The notes under the pieces: model-generated
The model's input: the letters and a program-made list of their open reading frames with translations, nothing else
Databases searched by the model: none
What the model was told of the DNA's origin: nothing
Shown: piece by piece, positions 8,110 through 35,579 of the stretch
Layout: every line of letters begins with the position of its first letter
Position numbering within the stretch: the stretch's first letter is position 1
Translations under genes and position numbers: made by a program
Virus record (IMG/VR): IMGVR_UViG_3300037141_000243
Location: 8,850-72,849 of that record
Source: a virus
DNA length: 64,000 nucleotides
Direction: 5' to 3' (one strand)

Positions 8110-9084
8110 TCAGCAGCCCAATGCGTTTGCTTGCCACGATGCGCAAGACCAATAGCGGAAAGATTGGATATACATATCAATAGCGCTGGGTGGCGAACCA
8201 CAGTTCGGCTGTCCCCCGCCGCATTGTTCGGCCATCCACATATTAACAATGTGAAGCTGGCTTTCTGTGTCTGCGGTAGTTGAGCCACTGGTCACGACAC
8301 TATGATCGTAATACCAGACAATCCCCGGCCCTCCGCCACATGCCCCTGATCCCACAAATGTTCCGCACCATAAAATTCCGATTGTGTGAAACACTGTTGG
8401 GTCGCCGGGCGATACTGAGCCAGACGCACCAGAACTGTTGGTCGTCCCATTGCACTGTGCATCGCCGGGGCCGTTTGTCTGATGCAAGGTCACATGCAAC
8501 GTGCTGTCGGTATTGTAGCTCCACTCGTTGTCTATTTCGCTATACGGTGGCGCTGTTCCAGATACGGGTAATGTGGGAAAGCCTTGTGCCAGACAATTTT
8601 TCCCGGTCGTGAGCCCGAGTAACCATTCTGCACCCCATGCGGCAGTGTTGTTCGGCGTGTATCTTACGACCCACTCATAATAGCCATGACCAAAAGCGCG
8701 GTAGGTCGAAAGCGATCTATCGCCGGACGAAATTGTAGGCAACGGGCAAAGCGTTCCGGGGTTTGTAGTCGGTAGTGGGCATCCAGTTGTTGCAAAGGCT
8801 GTTACCCATTGCAGATGAATATTCCCGCTTGCGTCAACGCTGATGTAAGAAGATGGCACCGAATAAAAGCTCGGCGCTCCTTGCCACAGTCCATTGTGCC
8901 ACATATGGCCGGCGGCTGTTCCGGTTTGGTCAATGTCAAAGCCGGTAGCTGCGTCCTGATTGCTGGCAAGCGTTGAGAATAGATTGGCGCTGGCTTCAAT
9001 CGGCGGGGTTAGGTTTTCAGTCGGAACAACGCCGCCAAAGGCGCAGAGGCTTGCCCATAGGGCGACGACGATAGTTAGTCGCAT
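8110..9084 (-). CDS. Secreted GH16-like glycoside hydrolase
   Basis: Hydrophobic N-terminal signal; GH16 pattern FGHGYYE...AWGAEWLL...EIDNE (E-x-D-x-E catalytic motif)...FHTIGILW...WYYD...MYIQSFRYW; several Cys pairs. Confidence 0.7.
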   Translation of the reverse strand: MRLTIVVALWASLCAFGGVVPTENLTPPIEASANLFSTLASNQDAATGFDIDQTGTAAGHMWHNGLWQGAPSFYSVPSSYISVDASGNIHLQWVTAFATTGCPLPTTNPGTLCPLPTISSGDRSLSTYRAFGHGYYEWVVRYTPNNTAAWGAEWLLGLTTGKNCLAQGFPTLPVSGTAPPYSEIDNEWSYNTDSTLHVTLHQTNGPGDAQCNGTTNSSGASGSVSPGDPTVFHTIGILWCGTFVGSGACGGGPGIVWYYDHSVVTSGSTTADTESQLHIVNMWMAEQCGGGQPNCGSPPSAIDMYIQSFRYWSCASWQANALGC

Positions 9085-29812: not shown

Positions 29813-30850
29813 TCAATTACCGCTTTCCTTTATTGCCGCGACAGCTTTATCAGCGGACCCTTTAAGAAATATGAGTACGTGCTGATGAGTTCGACCTAGC
29901 TTGCGCGTGGCGTTAAAAGGACGACCGGCCCGGATACTAAGGCTGCCCAACATCGTCAAACGGATTGCATCGTTGTAAAGATGCAGCCCGGCGCGTTGGA
30001 AAGCATTTATCGTCCCAGGAACAAACCCCACACAATTACCATCCTTGCCCCTGACTTCCCCAACTACAAAAATAGCAAAGCGGTTTAGTTTCAATCGAGT
30101 AACGACACTTTCTATGATGCCAGAATACTCGGGCTCAAACTTGTCCCATTTCAACGTGGAGATATCTTGTGGATCATTACTATATTGTTCGAGATCAACG
30201 TACGGAGGACAACTGTAAATACAGTCCAATGATTCAGGCTTTACAACCTTTGCTGAACTTCGCGCATCGCAAACCACGTATTTGGGAGTATTGGTTTTAC
30301 AAATCCTTTGAGCCTGTTCGTTGTTTGCCTCGACCTGCTCGGGTCGGATATCCGTTCCCAAGTATTTGTAACCCAACTTAGATGCCACAATACCGGCACA
30401 GCAACCACCCACAAACGGGTCAAAAACAAACCCACCCTTCGGCACAAACCATTTATACATCAGCTCGCAAAGCACGGGGTCAAACGACGACGTGCCTGTT
30501 TGGCCAGAAGTGTTTATCTTTCGGGATACCGGATCATCCCTAAGGGTAGCGCCTTCGGCGCTACCCTTAGCCTTCCCGTTCCCACCTCGCGCCTTATCGC
30601 GATTTTGCTGATCCACCTTTTCCTTGAAATAACGAGGGTCTTTGGCAGCGGCACTGAATCGTAAAAGATTCTCCGCCCGACCCAGCACCCGATCCATCCC
30701 CAAGGATAACCACGCAGCCTTCCGATCTTGCCATTCACCCTGCCGCGCATCCAGCACTGAAAACGGCGGTATCCCAAATTTATCGACGAGTCCACCCCCG
30801 TGGGTTTCAAACACGGCGTCCTTCTCGAAGAGACTTTTGTATTTTGCCAT
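29813..30850 (-). CDS. DNA amino-methyltransferase
   Basis: Motif I FDPFVGG and motif IV SCPPY; N-terminal PPFSVLDARQGEWQ.RK..W; probable start MAKYK at 30850. Confidence 0.85.
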   Translation of the reverse strand: MAKYKSLFEKDAVFETHGGGLVDKFGIPPFSVLDARQGEWQDRKAAWLSLGMDRVLGRAENLLRFSAAAKDPRYFKEKVDQQNRDKARGGNGKAKGSAEGATLRDDPVSRKINTSGQTGTSSFDPVLCELMYKWFVPKGGFVFDPFVGGCCAGIVASKLGYKYLGTDIRPEQVEANNEQAQRICKTNTPKYVVCDARSSAKVVKPESLDCIYSCPPYVDLEQYSNDPQDISTLKWDKFEPEYSGIIESVVTRLKLNRFAIFVVGEVRGKDGNCVGFVPGTINAFQRAGLHLYNDAIRLTMLGSLSIRAGRPFNATRKLGRTHQHVLIFLKGSADKAVAAIKESGN

Positions 30851-30851
30851 C

Positions 30852-33416
30852 TTATTTTTTCCACGTGTTAGATGCGTACTTACCAATCTCGTCCATATCA
30901 CAGAGATTAGGACCGATGGACATTTCCACCACCAGCGGCACATTCAGGAACGGGTAGGTCTTAGTCAGCAAGGTATCAATCTTTTCCTCGGCATAATCAT
31001 CAAAACCCTTAACTGGAAAGATACTGGTAAGATCATCATGGATATTACAAATGGGCTGGAAATACCAGTCTTCCTTTTCCGAAAGTGCGTTCATTCCGTC
31101 GATCACAATTTCACTCGCTAGATTTTGGATAGGGGCATTGATAAGCTGGTTCGGTGAGATTGGGGCGCGGCGTCGTATTCCCATTGCATTCTCAACATAC
31201 CCCTGCTCCTTGAAGTCAGCGATGATGCGTTCCTGCCATTCCTTGACCCCTGAAAAGGTCTTCCAAAATTCCTTGTAAAGCCTACCCAGAGATCCCTCAG
31301 GCAAACCCACTTGTCTTTCGGCGGTCGATTGCTGCGCGCCAAAGAACAGGGCGAAAACCCACCCACCCTTAACCGTCTGGCGAAAACCCTTCATGACGCC
31401 TTTGTCTTTTATGTATTTCTTACCCCCAACAACAACAGGAAATTCGTAAGCAATCTGCTCGGCCCAATCCATGTGCACGTCATAATCTTCCCAGAGCATT
31501 TTAGCGTAAACTTTGTCCTGTGACTCCATCGCTATACAACGACCCTCAATCTGCCCGTAATCCACGGAGCAAAGCAGATGGCCCTCAGGGGCGGCGATCT
31601 GACGACGGATTTCTTTTCCATCATCAGTTCTCTTGGGCAGATTTTGTGAATTTGGGTCCTCTGAACTCGACCGACCTGTAACCGTACTGAATCCATTCAA
31701 TATCGGATGCAGCTTTCCATCAGGGTAAACGTATTTGTGACCCTTGGGCCATACATAAGTTGACGCCAGCTTGGACGGCGCGCGCCAGTCCAACACCTTT
31801 TTGGCAATCGGGGCGTCGATCTTTTCCAGCACGGATTTGGTTACGGAATAGCTGGCCTCGCCGCCGTTGTAGCCTTCGCTCTTGCCAGCATCCGACCCCA
31901 CAATATCGCGGAACATCTTGACACAGTCGGTATCCGATCCGGGCTTAAAGTCCTTTTTGTATTTCTTACGGAAGGCTGCCACATCCGGATCGGTCGCGAT
32001 GGCCTTTGTCGCCTTGGCAATGGCCGTGCTCAATTTGTCATCGAGGCGGTCGGCCTGCTCAAAGTCGACCGGCATCCCCTTGATTTGTGTTAGGACAAGC
32101 GTAGGAATACGACGAATGCGGCGCTGGTATAGTTTAGTCAGTCCATCCAGCTCCAATTCCTCGGCCTGGTTCCAAAACAGCTCGAGACAGTATTTGGCGT
32201 CCACCGCGTTGTAGGGTAGGATCGCTTCCAGCGGTTCGCTTTCCATGTTTTTAGTATCGACATTAGACAGCGTCTTGATGTTAATACCAAAGCGGTTGAG
32301 TGTGATGAAACCCAACCCAAGGCAACTCGTATCCTTTGATGCCTGCTCTTGATCCGGCTTACCACCCACCCTTTCGTCCAGGGTATAGGCTTGGACCATC
32401 GAGTCACCCCATTGGGTACCGCGCAACAATTCCTTACCAAATTTGACCGCCGTCCATTCCATCTCGAATGCCAAATTGTGGGCTATCTTGCGGACAGGGG
32501 CTTTCAGGTACGCGAGGAAAGCCTGCCGGATCATTTCCTTGGCCGGCTTACTCCATTTGGCTTCTGGGTGGTCGTAGGGGAAGGCAATCGCCTTACCTTT
32601 GATTGCAATCCCAATGGACAGGATTTTGGTTTCGGGGCGGTAAGGGCGCAAATGACTGGTTTCATAGTCAAGCCCGGATTCAGGCTCGCTGGCGGCCTTT
32701 TCCAGAAAGCGGACAATGTCCCCTGCCGCCCGTGGATCGCACCAGTCGACGCTTGTGAGGCCCGTGAACGCCTTTTCCCGGCTATGGAAAGGGGGCGGGG
32801 GCAGATCGTTGATCTCAGCAAAGGCCCGGCGCAGGTCAAGGCGGAAAACATGCTCCTCCTTGGATTCCCCGCTGCGGCGGGCTGAGCGGGCCACAAAGGT
32901 GGGGTCCAGCATGGGGAAATACCAGCAGACGTGGTTACCTATCTTGACGGGTATTTTCCTGCCACGCCATTTGACAATACCATTCTGTTGGAGCGCCCAA
33001 TGTAGGGGCACATTCCCCATACCGAAGATCGCTAGGGGCTGAGCAACAATGATGTCTTTTTCAACACGCGGTCTGCAACACTCTCTCTCGATAGGTTCAG
33101 GATCACGTCCGGCTGGCGTTCTACAATTGATGACATTGTTAAAGCGTATTCGGTCGCGCCACTTCTTAGGAATCTGTTTGAGCAAAAGCTGGCCCGATGT
33201 GCCGGCAAAATGCTCGCCCTGTTTATCATCCTCGGCGGTAGGGGCTTCCCCCAATATGTAGATGTCAGGCTGCTTATCGCCCGACGCTTTCATCTTGGGG
33301 TGGTCAAGGTCGGCTGTATTCAGCGGGCATCCACGGCAACCCAACCTGCGATACAAATCAACAGACCCAGAATCACCGCTGGCTTTTGCTAACGTCTGTG
33401 CCCCAAAAAACCCCAA
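30852..33416 (-). CDS. Family A DNA polymerase with N-terminal uracil-DNA-glycosylase-like domain and 3'-5' exonuclease
   Basis: UDG-like C..CPL, LGEAP, F.G.SG, NVINC; exonuclease LDYET, HNLAFE, YNAVDA; TGRSSS.DPN.QN, motif A DYGQIEGR, motif C IHDDL; TTG start. Confidence 0.93.
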   Translation of the reverse strand: MGFFGAQTLAKASGDSGSVDLYRRLGCRGCPLNTADLDHPKMKASGDKQPDIYILGEAPTAEDDKQGEHFAGTSGQLLLKQIPKKWRDRIRFNNVINCRTPAGRDPEPIERECCRPRVEKDIIVAQPLAIFGMGNVPLHWALQQNGIVKWRGRKIPVKIGNHVCWYFPMLDPTFVARSARRSGESKEEHVFRLDLRRAFAEINDLPPPPFHSREKAFTGLTSVDWCDPRAAGDIVRFLEKAASEPESGLDYETSHLRPYRPETKILSIGIAIKGKAIAFPYDHPEAKWSKPAKEMIRQAFLAYLKAPVRKIAHNLAFEMEWTAVKFGKELLRGTQWGDSMVQAYTLDERVGGKPDQEQASKDTSCLGLGFITLNRFGINIKTLSNVDTKNMESEPLEAILPYNAVDAKYCLELFWNQAEELELDGLTKLYQRRIRRIPTLVLTQIKGMPVDFEQADRLDDKLSTAIAKATKAIATDPDVAAFRKKYKKDFKPGSDTDCVKMFRDIVGSDAGKSEGYNGGEASYSVTKSVLEKIDAPIAKKVLDWRAPSKLASTYVWPKGHKYVYPDGKLHPILNGFSTVTGRSSSEDPNSQNLPKRTDDGKEIRRQIAAPEGHLLCSVDYGQIEGRCIAMESQDKVYAKMLWEDYDVHMDWAEQIAYEFPVVVGGKKYIKDKGVMKGFRQTVKGGWVFALFFGAQQSTAERQVGLPEGSLGRLYKEFWKTFSGVKEWQERIIADFKEQGYVENAMGIRRRAPISPNQLINAPIQNLASEIVIDGMNALSEKEDWYFQPICNIHDDLTSIFPVKGFDDYAEEKIDTLLTKTYPFLNVPLVVEMSIGPNLCDMDEIGKYASNTWKK

Positions 33417-33418
33417 AC

Positions 33419-34138
33419 CTATTTACCCCTACAAACATGCTTCCACGTCTGACCAGAACAGATAAGGCTTATGGTTGCTTTACCAACCCCAAACCTTTTT
33501 GCTAACGCTCCCCCGCCAAATTCTTGATGATACGGTTTATAGTTCTCAATAATAAAACGAACATCATCTTCAGTAAGTTTTGACGAACTACTTTTACTAC
33601 CCCTAAGTGAATCACCGACTTTTCGATTATGCTCGGCAGTGTGGGGTTTGCCGCGCAAAGCTATAGATATTTTTTTCTTATGCACTTTAGACAATGGTTT
33701 TCCACCTACCCATATTTTTCTACCATTTCTATGTGCATCACGAATATTGTCTCCTTTTGTTCCCCACGCAAGATTTTCCAAATAATTATTTGTACAATCA
33801 TCATCCAAATGACGAGCAAGACTGCATCCTTTTCCTGATCCATATTTAGTTGGTGGTGGTCCCCTAAACGCCAGCAAAACAACAGCAGCCACAGCAATCT
33901 GTTTATCTTTGCCAATCTTTGCATAAGCTCTAACTTTTCCTGAATGTTCTACTATAGATTCAGCCCACACGCGCCCATCAGAAGACATAAACGATGCCCG
34001 TTTTGTACGTCCATTATTACTCGCACATAGCCCATCAGACCCAGGAACGGGCTTCCATATTTCAGGGCGATGATAAAGGTCATTTGATCCGGCCTCGCCT
34101 TGTGCCTTGGCGAGAGTCTGCGCCCCAAAGAATCCCAT
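33419..34138 (-). mobile_element. HNH homing endonuclease (NUMOD4-HNH-NUMOD3-like) carrying a copy of the polymerase N-terminus
   Basis: EIWKPVPG...SNNGR, V...VLLAF.G, RHLDDD.TNN..ENLAWGT..DN, SKLTEDDV...LAKRFGV; AT-richer than its flanks. Confidence 0.88.
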
Positions 34139-34144
34139 GTGATG

Positions 34145-34487
34145 TTATTTTACTTCTTCAGGTTGAAACACCCAATACTCGCTACACAAATCACACAGCA
34201 TTCCCCACGAAGGCCACCCGTGAATATAAGAGCTATCGGGGGCGGCCATCCACGCCTTCTCAAAAAACGAATGCAAGGTTTCGTGATCCTTTTCTGCCTT
34301 GGCGTCCTCAAGAGTGCGGATCATTGTCTTTTCGTGAATTACAGGCTCTAATCCAATACCATCAGACCACCACAAGCCTTCAGGACCTCGACTCATTGGG
34401 GCGCCACATCGATCAAAAATATCAAGGATATTAGACCAATGCGAATCAACAGCCGCCCACCAATCCCCCTGTGTTCTAATTTCCACG
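34145..34487 (-). CDS. Hypothetical protein
   Basis: Trp-rich ORF ending WGMLCDLCSEYWVF; start uncertain. Confidence 0.55.
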
Positions 34488-35507
34488 CTACACCATTCCG
34501 CTGACAACAAACCCCGAATGGTTACCCATCGTCATGATGACGCAGTTATCGGTAAACAAAATCTTGTCCATTTTGGAAAGACCCTTCTTGACCAGCGCCA
34601 CATCAAACGCTGATTCGGCTTTATAGCTCGCGCCTTCCAGCGGCACCTTTTCTCGCAACTCGCCGGCATTGGTATCCAGCTCAAGAGAAAGCATCGCATC
34701 AGCCACGGTATGCTTAACCCCTATCGGCAAAACGCCACAAAGCACCAGCACACGGTCATACGCCAAGGCCAAGCGTCCGGGGATTTCGGTGACCTTTTTA
34801 TGGTAATTTTCCGGCAGGACATTTGCTAAGGCACTATCATAATCAAGCGGCTTTTCGCTATGGATCAGGCGGGAAAATATGGCGGTGCCGTTCTCGGCTA
34901 CGGCCATGACCGCATCTTCCTCAAGGTACAACTTACCGCCAGCAGCGCAAAGCTCAAGCACCTGTTGGCAAAAGGCGGGCGGCACTTCCATCCGCACCTT
35001 CGGCAGATCGGTGCCGTTAACCACCGACCAGGCCAAGCTGCGGTCGTTGGTGGAGTACAATCGCAAGCGGTCCTTTTCACTAATGAAGCTGACCCCGGTT
35101 TCATCCGTGGCGCTGATCAGGACATGTTGGATCGCATCCAACAGCTTTTGATCCAACTTGATGTGTTTTTTGGGTAGCTGTGGGAATTCCCAGACCGCAC
35201 TATCGGGTGGCAGAGACGGAAACTTGGCTTTCGATCCACCCAGCTTCAAAAGGAAGTCGTTACCATCCAAAGTGATCTCAGCCTGCTTGGCGAGGGAATT
35301 GCTGACCATGCCGTAAAGCAACGCGCCCTGGACGCCACCCTTAAAGTCAGTCTCCAGCGGCACGTCTATTCCGATGATATTATTGTAGGCGAAGAGCGAT
35401 TCCCCTGTGAAGTAGTAACACAACAGTTGCGTTAAGGGGTTTTTGTCCGCGAGAGCGGGTTTGCAGTTTTTAAGAGCGGTGAATAATTCACGGCGGTCAA
35501 ATTTCAT
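34488..35507 (-). CDS. DNA polymerase III beta-clamp-like protein
   Basis: About 339 aa; MKFDRRELFTAL, STND..LA, FSRLI...DY and terminal VVSGM pattern of DnaN; lies in the replication cluster. Confidence 0.7.
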   Translation of the reverse strand: MKFDRRELFTALKNCKPALADKNPLTQLLCYYFTGESLFAYNNIIGIDVPLETDFKGGVQGALLYGMVSNSLAKQAEITLDGNDFLLKLGGSKAKFPSLPPDSAVWEFPQLPKKHIKLDQKLLDAIQHVLISATDETGVSFISEKDRLRLYSTNDRSLAWSVVNGTDLPKVRMEVPPAFCQQVLELCAAGGKLYLEEDAVMAVAENGTAIFSRLIHSEKPLDYDSALANVLPENYHKKVTEIPGRLALAYDRVLVLCGVLPIGVKHTVADAMLSLELDTNAGELREKVPLEGASYKAESAFDVALVKKGLSKMDKILFTDNCVIMTMGNHSGFVVSGMV

Positions 35508-35518
35508 AGGTACCCTCA

Positions 35519-35558
35519 AAAAGAAAAGGCTCGCTAGATAAGACATACCCAGCGAGCC
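35519..35558 (-). terminator. Intrinsic terminator
   Basis: Minus strand GGCTCGCTGG-loop-CTAGCGAGCC followed by TTTTCTTTTT. Confidence 0.7.
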
Positions 35559-35579
35559 CAAGGTAGAGGAGTAATAGGT

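Follow-up and report, generated by a model that had tools for sequence, protein, structure and literature searches.

The polymerase locus

The stretch of viral DNA analyzed here (hereafter the window) comprises 64,000 nucleotides (nt) and belongs to a virus record of 72,849 bases whose completeness is rated at 98% (IMG/VR record IMGVR_UViG_3300037141_000243, positions 8,850 to 72,849). The minus strand of the window encodes a family A DNA polymerase and, directly in front of it, an HNH nuclease, and the two proteins begin with closely similar 24-residue peptides that are encoded by very different DNA. Four consecutive open reading frames (ORFs) form the locus, in the order clamp-like gene, 121-amino acid (aa) ORF, HNH ORF and polymerase ORF (Table 1; all positions are those of the window). 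The ATG of the HNH ORF is located 6 nt after the stop codon of the 121-aa ORF, the TTG of the polymerase is located 2 nt after the TAG of the HNH ORF, and two codons upstream of this TTG a TAA closes the polymerase frame.

This arrangement is real and not an artifact of assembly, because contigs from three other public runs, which belong to two studies, bridge the junctions with zero differences (record 3 of run X3, 33293-34274; record 14 of run X5, 33037-34050; record 9 of run X4, 33278-33449). Of the 14 public runs listed, which include peat and permafrost samples and no RNA run, 4 were compared with the locus; all of their contigs are at least 99% identical to it, and none contains a joint that skips the HNH gene. 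Run X6 does not cover 33247-34074, a gap that carries no weight at such depth.

Table 1. Coordinates of the proposed cassette, the polymerase and the adjacent upstream genes
Feature	Position	Strand	Remarks or basis
HNH ORF	33419-34138	-	239 aa, ATG start, TAG stop
Polymerase ORF	30852-33416	-	854 aa, TTG start
First copy of polymerase codons 1-24 (ATG)	34067..34138	-	Now the HNH start and N-terminal tag
HNH body including the TAG stop (33419-33421)	33419..34066	-	NUMOD4, HNH_3, NUMOD3, C-terminal helix-turn-helix-like part
Spacer of 2 nt, HNH stop to polymerase TTG	33417..33418	-	Sequence
AGGGG, Shine-Dalgarno-like, in the last HNH codons	33426..33430	-	9 nt upstream of the TTG; putative function
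Second, diverged copy of codons 1-24 (TTG), in frame with the polymerase	33345..33416	-	TTG aligns with the family Met1
Rest of the polymerase from codon 25, including C27 and C30	30852..33344	-	Pfam, PDB, model
Upstream 121-aa ORF (context, outside the cassette)	34145..34510	-	No function assigned
Sliding-clamp-like processivity factor gene (context)	34488..35507	-	phrog_947, E 6.1e-21

The duplicated N-terminus

The start peptides of the HNH protein and the polymerase are identical at 19 of the 24 residues, the start counted. At the DNA level, only four codons are the same (TTT, GGG, CAG, and TAT), 44 of the 72 bases match, the longest exact run shared by the two copies is 8 nt, and the last eight codons have 13 of 24 bases in common. 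The significance of the peptide match was assessed by comparing, pair by pair, all 24-mers of the window that are anchored at a start, 1084 in number: the runner-up has 12 identities, in Lys-rich low-complexity sequence, and the remaining pairs have at most 10. The match stands far apart from every other pair of ORF starts in the window and cannot be attributed to chance; a search of the whole virus record recovers the same second match (79% identity, E 9.5e-6). A preliminary description of this DNA had reported 19 of 24 identical residues and 4 of 19 identical codons at these coordinates, and the sequence bears this out.

At the 18 positions, other than the start, where the amino acids agree, 4 identical codons are observed and 6.05 are expected under independent draws from the phage's own codon usage (P(X<=4) = 0.21). 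The synonymous sites are therefore fully randomized, and the nucleotide likeness of the two copies is no greater than the peptide requires. The same description had contrasted a GC-richer copy on the HNH side with an AT-richer one on the polymerase side. The direction of this difference holds but its size is slight (GC 0.56 vs 0.50; GC at third codon positions, GC3, in 13 vs 11 of the 24 codons), and the contrast is too weak to decide which of the copies is native.

The polymerase and its conserved N-terminal peptide

The polymerase combines a UDG (family 4)-like domain, a 3′-5′ exonuclease and a PolA domain in a single chain that falls within the range of 800-900 residues (Pfam: DNA_pol_A, 1.6e-46; UDG, 2.2e-13; exonuclease, 1.3e-5), and the protein matches the structure PDB 1ui0 (E 2.3e-15) and also 1vk2. 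The UDG-exonuclease-PolA architecture is among those described for the polymerases of N4-like and SPO1-type phages (PMC10201439).

The N-terminus of this family is conserved. The TTG of the window polymerase aligns exactly with Met1 of the family; 90 of the 116 relatives begin with M-[GSA]-[FLWY]-x, 47 of them with MGFF, and C27 and C30 are invariant in the 40 sequences aligned. In the AlphaFold2 model (mean pLDDT 91.5), residues 1-16 score below 50, which predicts disorder, and residues 19-29 form the first helix. The 24 duplicated residues are, according to the alignments and this model, the conserved N-terminus of the family, that is, a predicted disordered MGFF tail followed by half of the first helix. 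Insertion after codon 24 interrupts this helix, which is the first one in the UDG-like domain, and falls three residues ahead of the invariant C27. Without codons 1-24, the polymerase would lose the conserved tail and half of the helix, and therefore a replacement would be needed.

Several further observations concern the polymerase family itself. In alignment A3, the tail (residues 1-16, 33369-33416) appears as a conserved M-[GS]-[FL]-[FL] start followed by a variable basic linker, and with its predicted disorder resembles a short linear interaction motif. Other mobile elements are frequent in the family: several relatives are 1053-1293 aa long with intein splicing domains (long or intein-bearing relatives are P0035, P0056, P0080, P0089, P0115, and P0122), P0080 has an HNH_3 domain beside the intein domain inside PolA, and at six loci (L014, L072, L088, L090, L092, and L108) the polymerase matches are 700-1100 nt longer than usual.

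The HNH nuclease

The HNH protein matches phrog_59 (HNH endonuclease) over residues 25-235 (E 2.9e-26), and a profile built from this protein and 12 relatives matches the structure of I-HmuI (PDB 1u3e, E 2.1e-15) starting from residue 2 of the chain, which is where the E-W-K motif lies. In the nuclease alignment A4, the residues of the catalytic motif, H110, N118, N122, N131 and D134, are invariant. By family, as judged from these profile matches, the nuclease is an HNH homing endonuclease of the I-HmuI type. Its body is foreign in composition: GC3 is 0.27, whereas 29 long ORFs have 0.57 and the polymerase has 0.60, and GC in 150-nt windows is 0.36-0.44 compared to about 0.47-0.63 in the flanking DNA.

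The first 24 residues are an extension that the nuclease family otherwise lacks, as the family matches begin near their end. An HMMER search of 1.84 billion representatives detected 16,652 relatives of the HNH protein at E<=1e-3; among the 149 non-self matches listed, only one protein, P0003 (see below), has a best stretch that begins before query residue 17, and all 30 tblastn matches listed begin at residues 21-27. After codon 1, the HNH frame is free of ATG, GTG and TTG codons until codon 51. The nuclease therefore can be made only from the polymerase-type start.

I-HmuI itself lies in the polymerase gene of phage SPO1. A self-splicing intron, with a spliced mRNA that joins codon 24 to codon 25 and the second copy left as an intronic remnant, would accordingly be a familiar setting for a nuclease of this family, and the HNH ORF is in frame with the upstream coding sequence, as is the case in many organelle introns; relatives of I-HmuI are indeed described as encoded in group I introns of Bacillus phages (PMC2988022). 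Such an intron is nevertheless extremely improbable here: no Rfam intron family is detected at E<=10 between 32000 and 35600 on either strand, the insert is all ORF but 2 bases, so that a ribozyme core could not be accommodated, and the second copy has an open frame, begins exactly at the family Met1 and keeps the peptide. The absence of an intron signal and the mere 2 non-coding bases between the ORFs agree with the earlier claim that the nuclease entered the gene without splicing. Two further ways of producing a polymerase across the insert were rejected, namely an intein (a stop codon is present and splicing motifs are not) and a nuclease-polymerase fusion made by frameshift or read-through (past the TAG, another stop codon follows after 10 codons).

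The composition of the nuclease also bears on the possibility that the first 72 bases were duplicated in place and then diverged under selection on both peptides, with no donor involved. Both copies have an open frame and their peptides are 79% identical, as this scenario requires. However, saturation of the synonymous sites would need long selection on both copies, yet the nuclease between them is still unadapted (GC3 0.27), and the combination of saturated copies and an unadapted nuclease points to recent arrival, so that duplication in place appears to be highly improbable, though less so than an intron.

Related loci without the nuclease

In viral contigs, 98 related polymerase loci were compared, and none carries a member of the HNH family at the polymerase 5′ end; the sole match to the family in these loci, in L074, is located about 3 kb upstream of the polymerase. 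None of the 86 loci that could be evaluated has a duplicated polymerase N-terminus, the best real score being 0.48 of positions as against 0.78 in the window. The nuclease is optional at this site because it is absent from the related polymerase loci, and is both patchy in its presence at a conserved gene and foreign in composition.

The closest relative without the nuclease among the contigs covered is a single contig, that of P0037 (loci L023, L027 and L032), with a polymerase 60% identical to that of the window. In this contig, the clamp gene is followed after 137 nt by the ATG of the polymerase, and then by the same methyltransferase neighbor as in the window. No DNA match to the locus was found in the phage collection, and a search with polymerase residues 1-40 for homologs among shorter proteins yielded none. 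A scan with a degenerate form of the tag peptide, that is, of the 24 residues carried by the nuclease, gave 3 stretches in viral contigs, 7 in metagenome contigs and 4 in genome contigs, of which only the P0037 contig is real.

Other tagged nucleases and the identity of the native copy

P0003 is an HNH protein of 209 residues with a body 27% identical to that of the window nuclease. It begins with 30 polymerase residues, the first 24 of which are identical to the HNH-side copy at 23 of 24 positions, and the tag, which is joined at codon 30, runs through the Cys pair before the E-x-W-K motif. Against a profile of 101 polymerase N-termini, P0003 scores E 7e-10 and the window HNH protein E 1.2e-4. 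By its protein sequence, P0003 is a second, independent fusion of a polymerase N-terminus to an HNH nuclease. The second closest body belongs to P0155 (50% identical over 113 residues), which begins with MGFFATKP and shares only MGFF with the window tag; its match to the polymerase N-terminus profile is marginal (E 0.13). The start of another nuclease, P0270 (MPFFDIPKEP), was considered as a polymerase tag and rejected (profile E 41). Neither P0270 nor P0155 has a relative in the viral contigs.

Since tag similarity does not follow nuclease similarity, the tags seem to have been taken from the resident polymerase and not inherited with the nuclease. Consistent with this, the HNH-side copy is slightly nearer to the HNH-less L032 (48/72 nt, 18/24 aa) than the polymerase-side copy (43/72 nt, 16/24 aa), and is probably the native 5′ end of the polymerase gene. 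Alignment with relatives that lack the nuclease had been put forward as the way to identify the ancestral copy; it favors the HNH-side copy slightly, but the nearest relative available, at 60% identity, is a distant one.

With the opposite polarity, the TTG copy would be the resident one, and a nuclease that already carried its tag would have been inserted as a unit between the upstream gene and the polymerase start. Such a location would be in keeping with free-standing endonuclease genes, which are described as usually sitting between genes (PMC2988022). TTG or GTG is the native start in 5 of 33 relatives, and the GC3 of the TTG copy is not foreign-like. Nor is the peptide on the polymerase side aberrant, given that R occupies the position of H23 in 14 relatives, compared to H in 76; the H23-to-R difference was accordingly dropped as a clue to polarity. 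However, a pre-tagged nuclease is difficult to reconcile with P0003, which combines a near-identical tag with a 27% identical body, and with P0155, which combines a 50% identical body with a different tag. The greater similarity of the HNH-side copy to the relative without the nuclease, and the location of the HNH ATG 6 nt after the upstream stop codon, which is the usual native arrangement (the polymerase start is within 14 nt of the upstream stop codon in 11 of 33 relatives), also argue against it. We consider the reverse polarity unlikely, although it is the least improbable of the alternatives.

Another possibility, raised as an alternative in the preliminary description and compatible with insertion of a cassette, is that the peptide is a functional tag: the disordered MGFF tail would dock the nuclease to the clamp or the replisome and hence to replication forks. 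An MGFF-type start is shared by 90 of 116 polymerases, and disorder is predicted for residues 1-16; the tail is also present at the start of two HNH proteins (that of the window and P0003) and perhaps of a third (P0155, at E 0.13); and a clamp-like homolog is encoded upstream of the polymerase in 67 of the 98 related loci, which makes it the usual neighbor. Moreover, the nicks made by HNH homing endonucleases are thought to become breaks at passing forks (PMC2988022). Retention of the peptide is, however, already explained by the absence of another start codon, and the two fusions were made at different points, codon 24 in one case and codon 30 in the other, which interrupt the helix and the Cys motif and look like break positions rather than the boundary of a motif. 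A predicted complex of the clamp with the polymerase N-terminus scored 0.45 and one control 0.56, a result that weighs on neither side. It appears doubtful, and slightly less probable than the reverse polarity, that the tail was captured more than once as a device that delivers the nuclease to the forks of a co-infecting uninvaded phage, where conversion of the nick into a break would drive homing.

A probable homing-endonuclease cassette with a replacement 5′ end

The interpretation that we favor, and consider likely, is that a homing-endonuclease cassette devoid of an intron interrupts an essential phage polymerase gene at its 5′ end and supplies a diverged replacement of that end. The endonuclease ORF is located in the coding region, between two copies of the gene end that are alike as protein and unlike as DNA. 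The preliminary description had proposed an insertion after codon 24 in which the nuclease took over the original start and provided a divergent new 5′ end, and this proposal is supported by four lines of evidence: the foreign composition of the HNH body, its absence from the 98 related loci, the lack of a start codon before codon 51, and the lack of an intron signal.

Under the scenario proposed here, the nuclease, whose relatives are nicking enzymes directed at phage genes (PMC2988022), would cut an uninvaded polymerase gene near codons 24-30, and during repair the nuclease gene would be copied from the donor, with the neighboring polymerase 5′ end of the donor following as a co-converted flank. 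The replacement copy most likely comes from another polymerase allele and would have arrived with the nuclease. The left end of the break, with the resident codons 1-24, would be joined in frame to the nuclease, which would consequently be translated from the polymerase's own start and carry its first 24 residues. Translation would then begin anew at the TTG to yield full-length polymerase, probably through coupling to the end of nuclease translation and possibly with the help of the AGGGG upstream of this codon (Table 1). TTG or GTG starts and close spacing to the upstream stop codon are both normal in this polymerase family. The RNA at the stop/start junction is not unusually structured (z = -0.88). 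The uninterrupted codon 24/25 sequence, the presumed recognition site, is gone because of the low base identity of the two copies, and its loss should give immunity. The same low identity makes deletion by recombination between the repeats unlikely.

Several results weigh against this interpretation. A close relative without the nuclease was not found in the phage collection, viral contigs, JGI metagenomes, GTDB genomes or the 4 runs, and when the polymerase is compared along its length with 8 relatives, sliding identity gives no breakpoint and the ranking of the relatives stays constant, so that no longer donor tract is visible. The difference between 48 and 43 matching nucleotides out of 72 in the comparison with L032 is small. 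The GC3 of the polymerase-side copy (0.46), intermediate between the values for the nuclease (0.27) and the phage (0.57), is not decisive, and because codon identity between the copies is not significantly below the chance expectation, old divergence rather than active recoding is possible. The comparison with P0003 and P0155 covers their proteins, and the Pfam scores of the nuclease are all below the cut-offs (NUMOD3, 17.3, cut-off 20.4; HNH_3, 16.9, cut-off 24.8; NUMOD4, 16.8, cut-off 23.4), while its profile and PHROG matches are strong. Finally, the polymerase has alternative potential starts, TTG at codons 21 and 25 and ATG at codon 42, and the public gene call (P0034, 813 aa) starts at Met42.

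If the cassette interpretation is correct, duplication of a gene end in diverged form would be a third way, besides introns and inteins, for a homing endonuclease to live in an essential gene. The stranded native start would become the translation start of the nuclease, so that expression of the nuclease and of the polymerase would be tied to one initiation site. Duplications of this kind also would mark the boundaries of exchange between phages. Should the MGFF tail indeed dock to the replisome, the locus would be an example from nature in which a selfish nuclease has gained a targeting peptide from its host, and the stranded 5′ end would be an acquired targeting module, more than a borrowed start codon. 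A practical implication is that gene callers miss the true start of the polymerase: in the start region (33291-33416), the public call P0034 omits the TTG, the MGFF tail and both invariant Cys residues, C27 and C30. Several relatives, P0038, P0041 and P0081 among them, probably are truncated by the same kind of gene call.

Neighboring genes

Promoter-like and terminator-like sites are not more numerous than expected from shuffled sequences, and no terminator-like site is located between the four ORFs. The 121-aa ORF has no match in Pfam or PHROG, and no tblastn match at E<=1e-3 in 29 loci, including the HNH-less L023. The encoded protein is Trp-rich, and given its location between the clamp and the polymerase, the ORF looks like an accessory insertion at the same junction. 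On the minus strand at 35527-35559, just upstream of the clamp ATG (35507), a 14-pair hairpin is followed by a T-run; this is a candidate terminator or attenuator between a gene for a 233-aa Lys/Ala-rich protein and the replication genes.

The gene that follows the polymerase encodes a protein with a ParB-like nuclease N-terminal part and a DNA methyltransferase (phrog_498, phrog_15396). Its longest ORF (29813-30943, minus strand) would overlap the 3′ end of the polymerase gene by 92 bases; a start at MAKYKS, which is conserved in the corresponding neighbor in L023, is located 2 nt after the polymerase stop codon.

Comparison with known mobile endonuclease systems

The closest parallel is provided by the mORF gene hybrids of fungal mitochondria, described for atp6, atp9, cox2 and nad3 of Glomus (Beaudet et al. 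2013, PMC3630166) and for atp6 of Allomyces macrogynus (Paquin et al. 1994, as cited in PMC3630166). In the hybrids covered by that description, the foreign C-terminus is 64-81% identical to the native one in DNA and 94-100% in protein, and the native end stays behind (PMC3630166). As in these hybrids, at the polymerase locus the endonuclease ORF interrupts a coding region, two copies of the gene end exist, and the copy considered to be inserted is diverged in DNA (61% identity), similar in protein and in frame with the core of the gene; the mORFs in atp6 and nad3 are, like the HNH ORF, in phase with the host gene. The differences are that the mORFs involve the C-terminus, LAGLIDADG or GIY-YIG endonucleases and an organelle, whereas here the N-terminus, an HNH nuclease and a phage are involved, and that in the mORFs the native end is stranded downstream and, in two cases, is untranscribed, whereas here it is reused as the start and N-terminus of the nuclease.

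The T4-like phages with MobA and the gene 60 bypass also contain an HNH element inside an essential phage replication gene, with a stretch homologous to the host gene. This stretch, homR, is reported to be 67-81% identical in DNA to the deleted host stretch (bioRxiv 10.1101/2022.08.31.505936), and the inserted sequences are described as protecting against further nicking (bioRxiv 10.1101/2022.08.31.505936; Bonocora et al. 2011 as cited therein). However, in the MobA system the gene is split into two polypeptides with added tails and a bypass, whereas here the polymerase is one polypeptide and there is no bypass signal; the parental stretch is deleted there and is part of the nuclease here; and the MobA ORF is a separate one that overlaps its neighbors out of frame. 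A bypass of the MobA/gene 60 type was also considered for the window and set aside, the polymerase-side copy being open from the TTG into the polymerase. In MobE, a free-standing HNH gene described in nrdA of Aeromonas phage Aeh1 (PMC3045599), the HNH gene likewise resides in an essential phage gene and is associated with neither an intron nor an intein, but the host protein is split and reassembled through tails, in contrast to the polymerase, which is kept whole by the duplicated 5′ end.

The nearest relatives of the nuclease by family are I-HmuI, I-HmuII and I-BasI, nicking enzymes of the HNH type that are described from group I introns in Bacillus phages (PMC2988022); judging from the title of a reference in the same source, the target of I-BasI is a phage family A DNA polymerase, and SPO1-type polymerases are described as UDG-PolA fusions as well (PMC10201439). 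The window nuclease shares with this group the family and the phage family A polymerase target, but the group members reside in self-splicing introns and start at E-W-K, whereas here a 24-residue host-derived extension precedes this motif and no intron signal is detectable. In the literature searched, which was covered in part, no published phage endonuclease was found for which the stranded 5′ end of the target gene serves as the start of the nuclease. Compared to the known cassettes, the arrangement described here is set apart by the location at the 5′ end of a phage polymerase gene, the host protein kept in one piece without bypass, and the stranded gene end reused by the nuclease.

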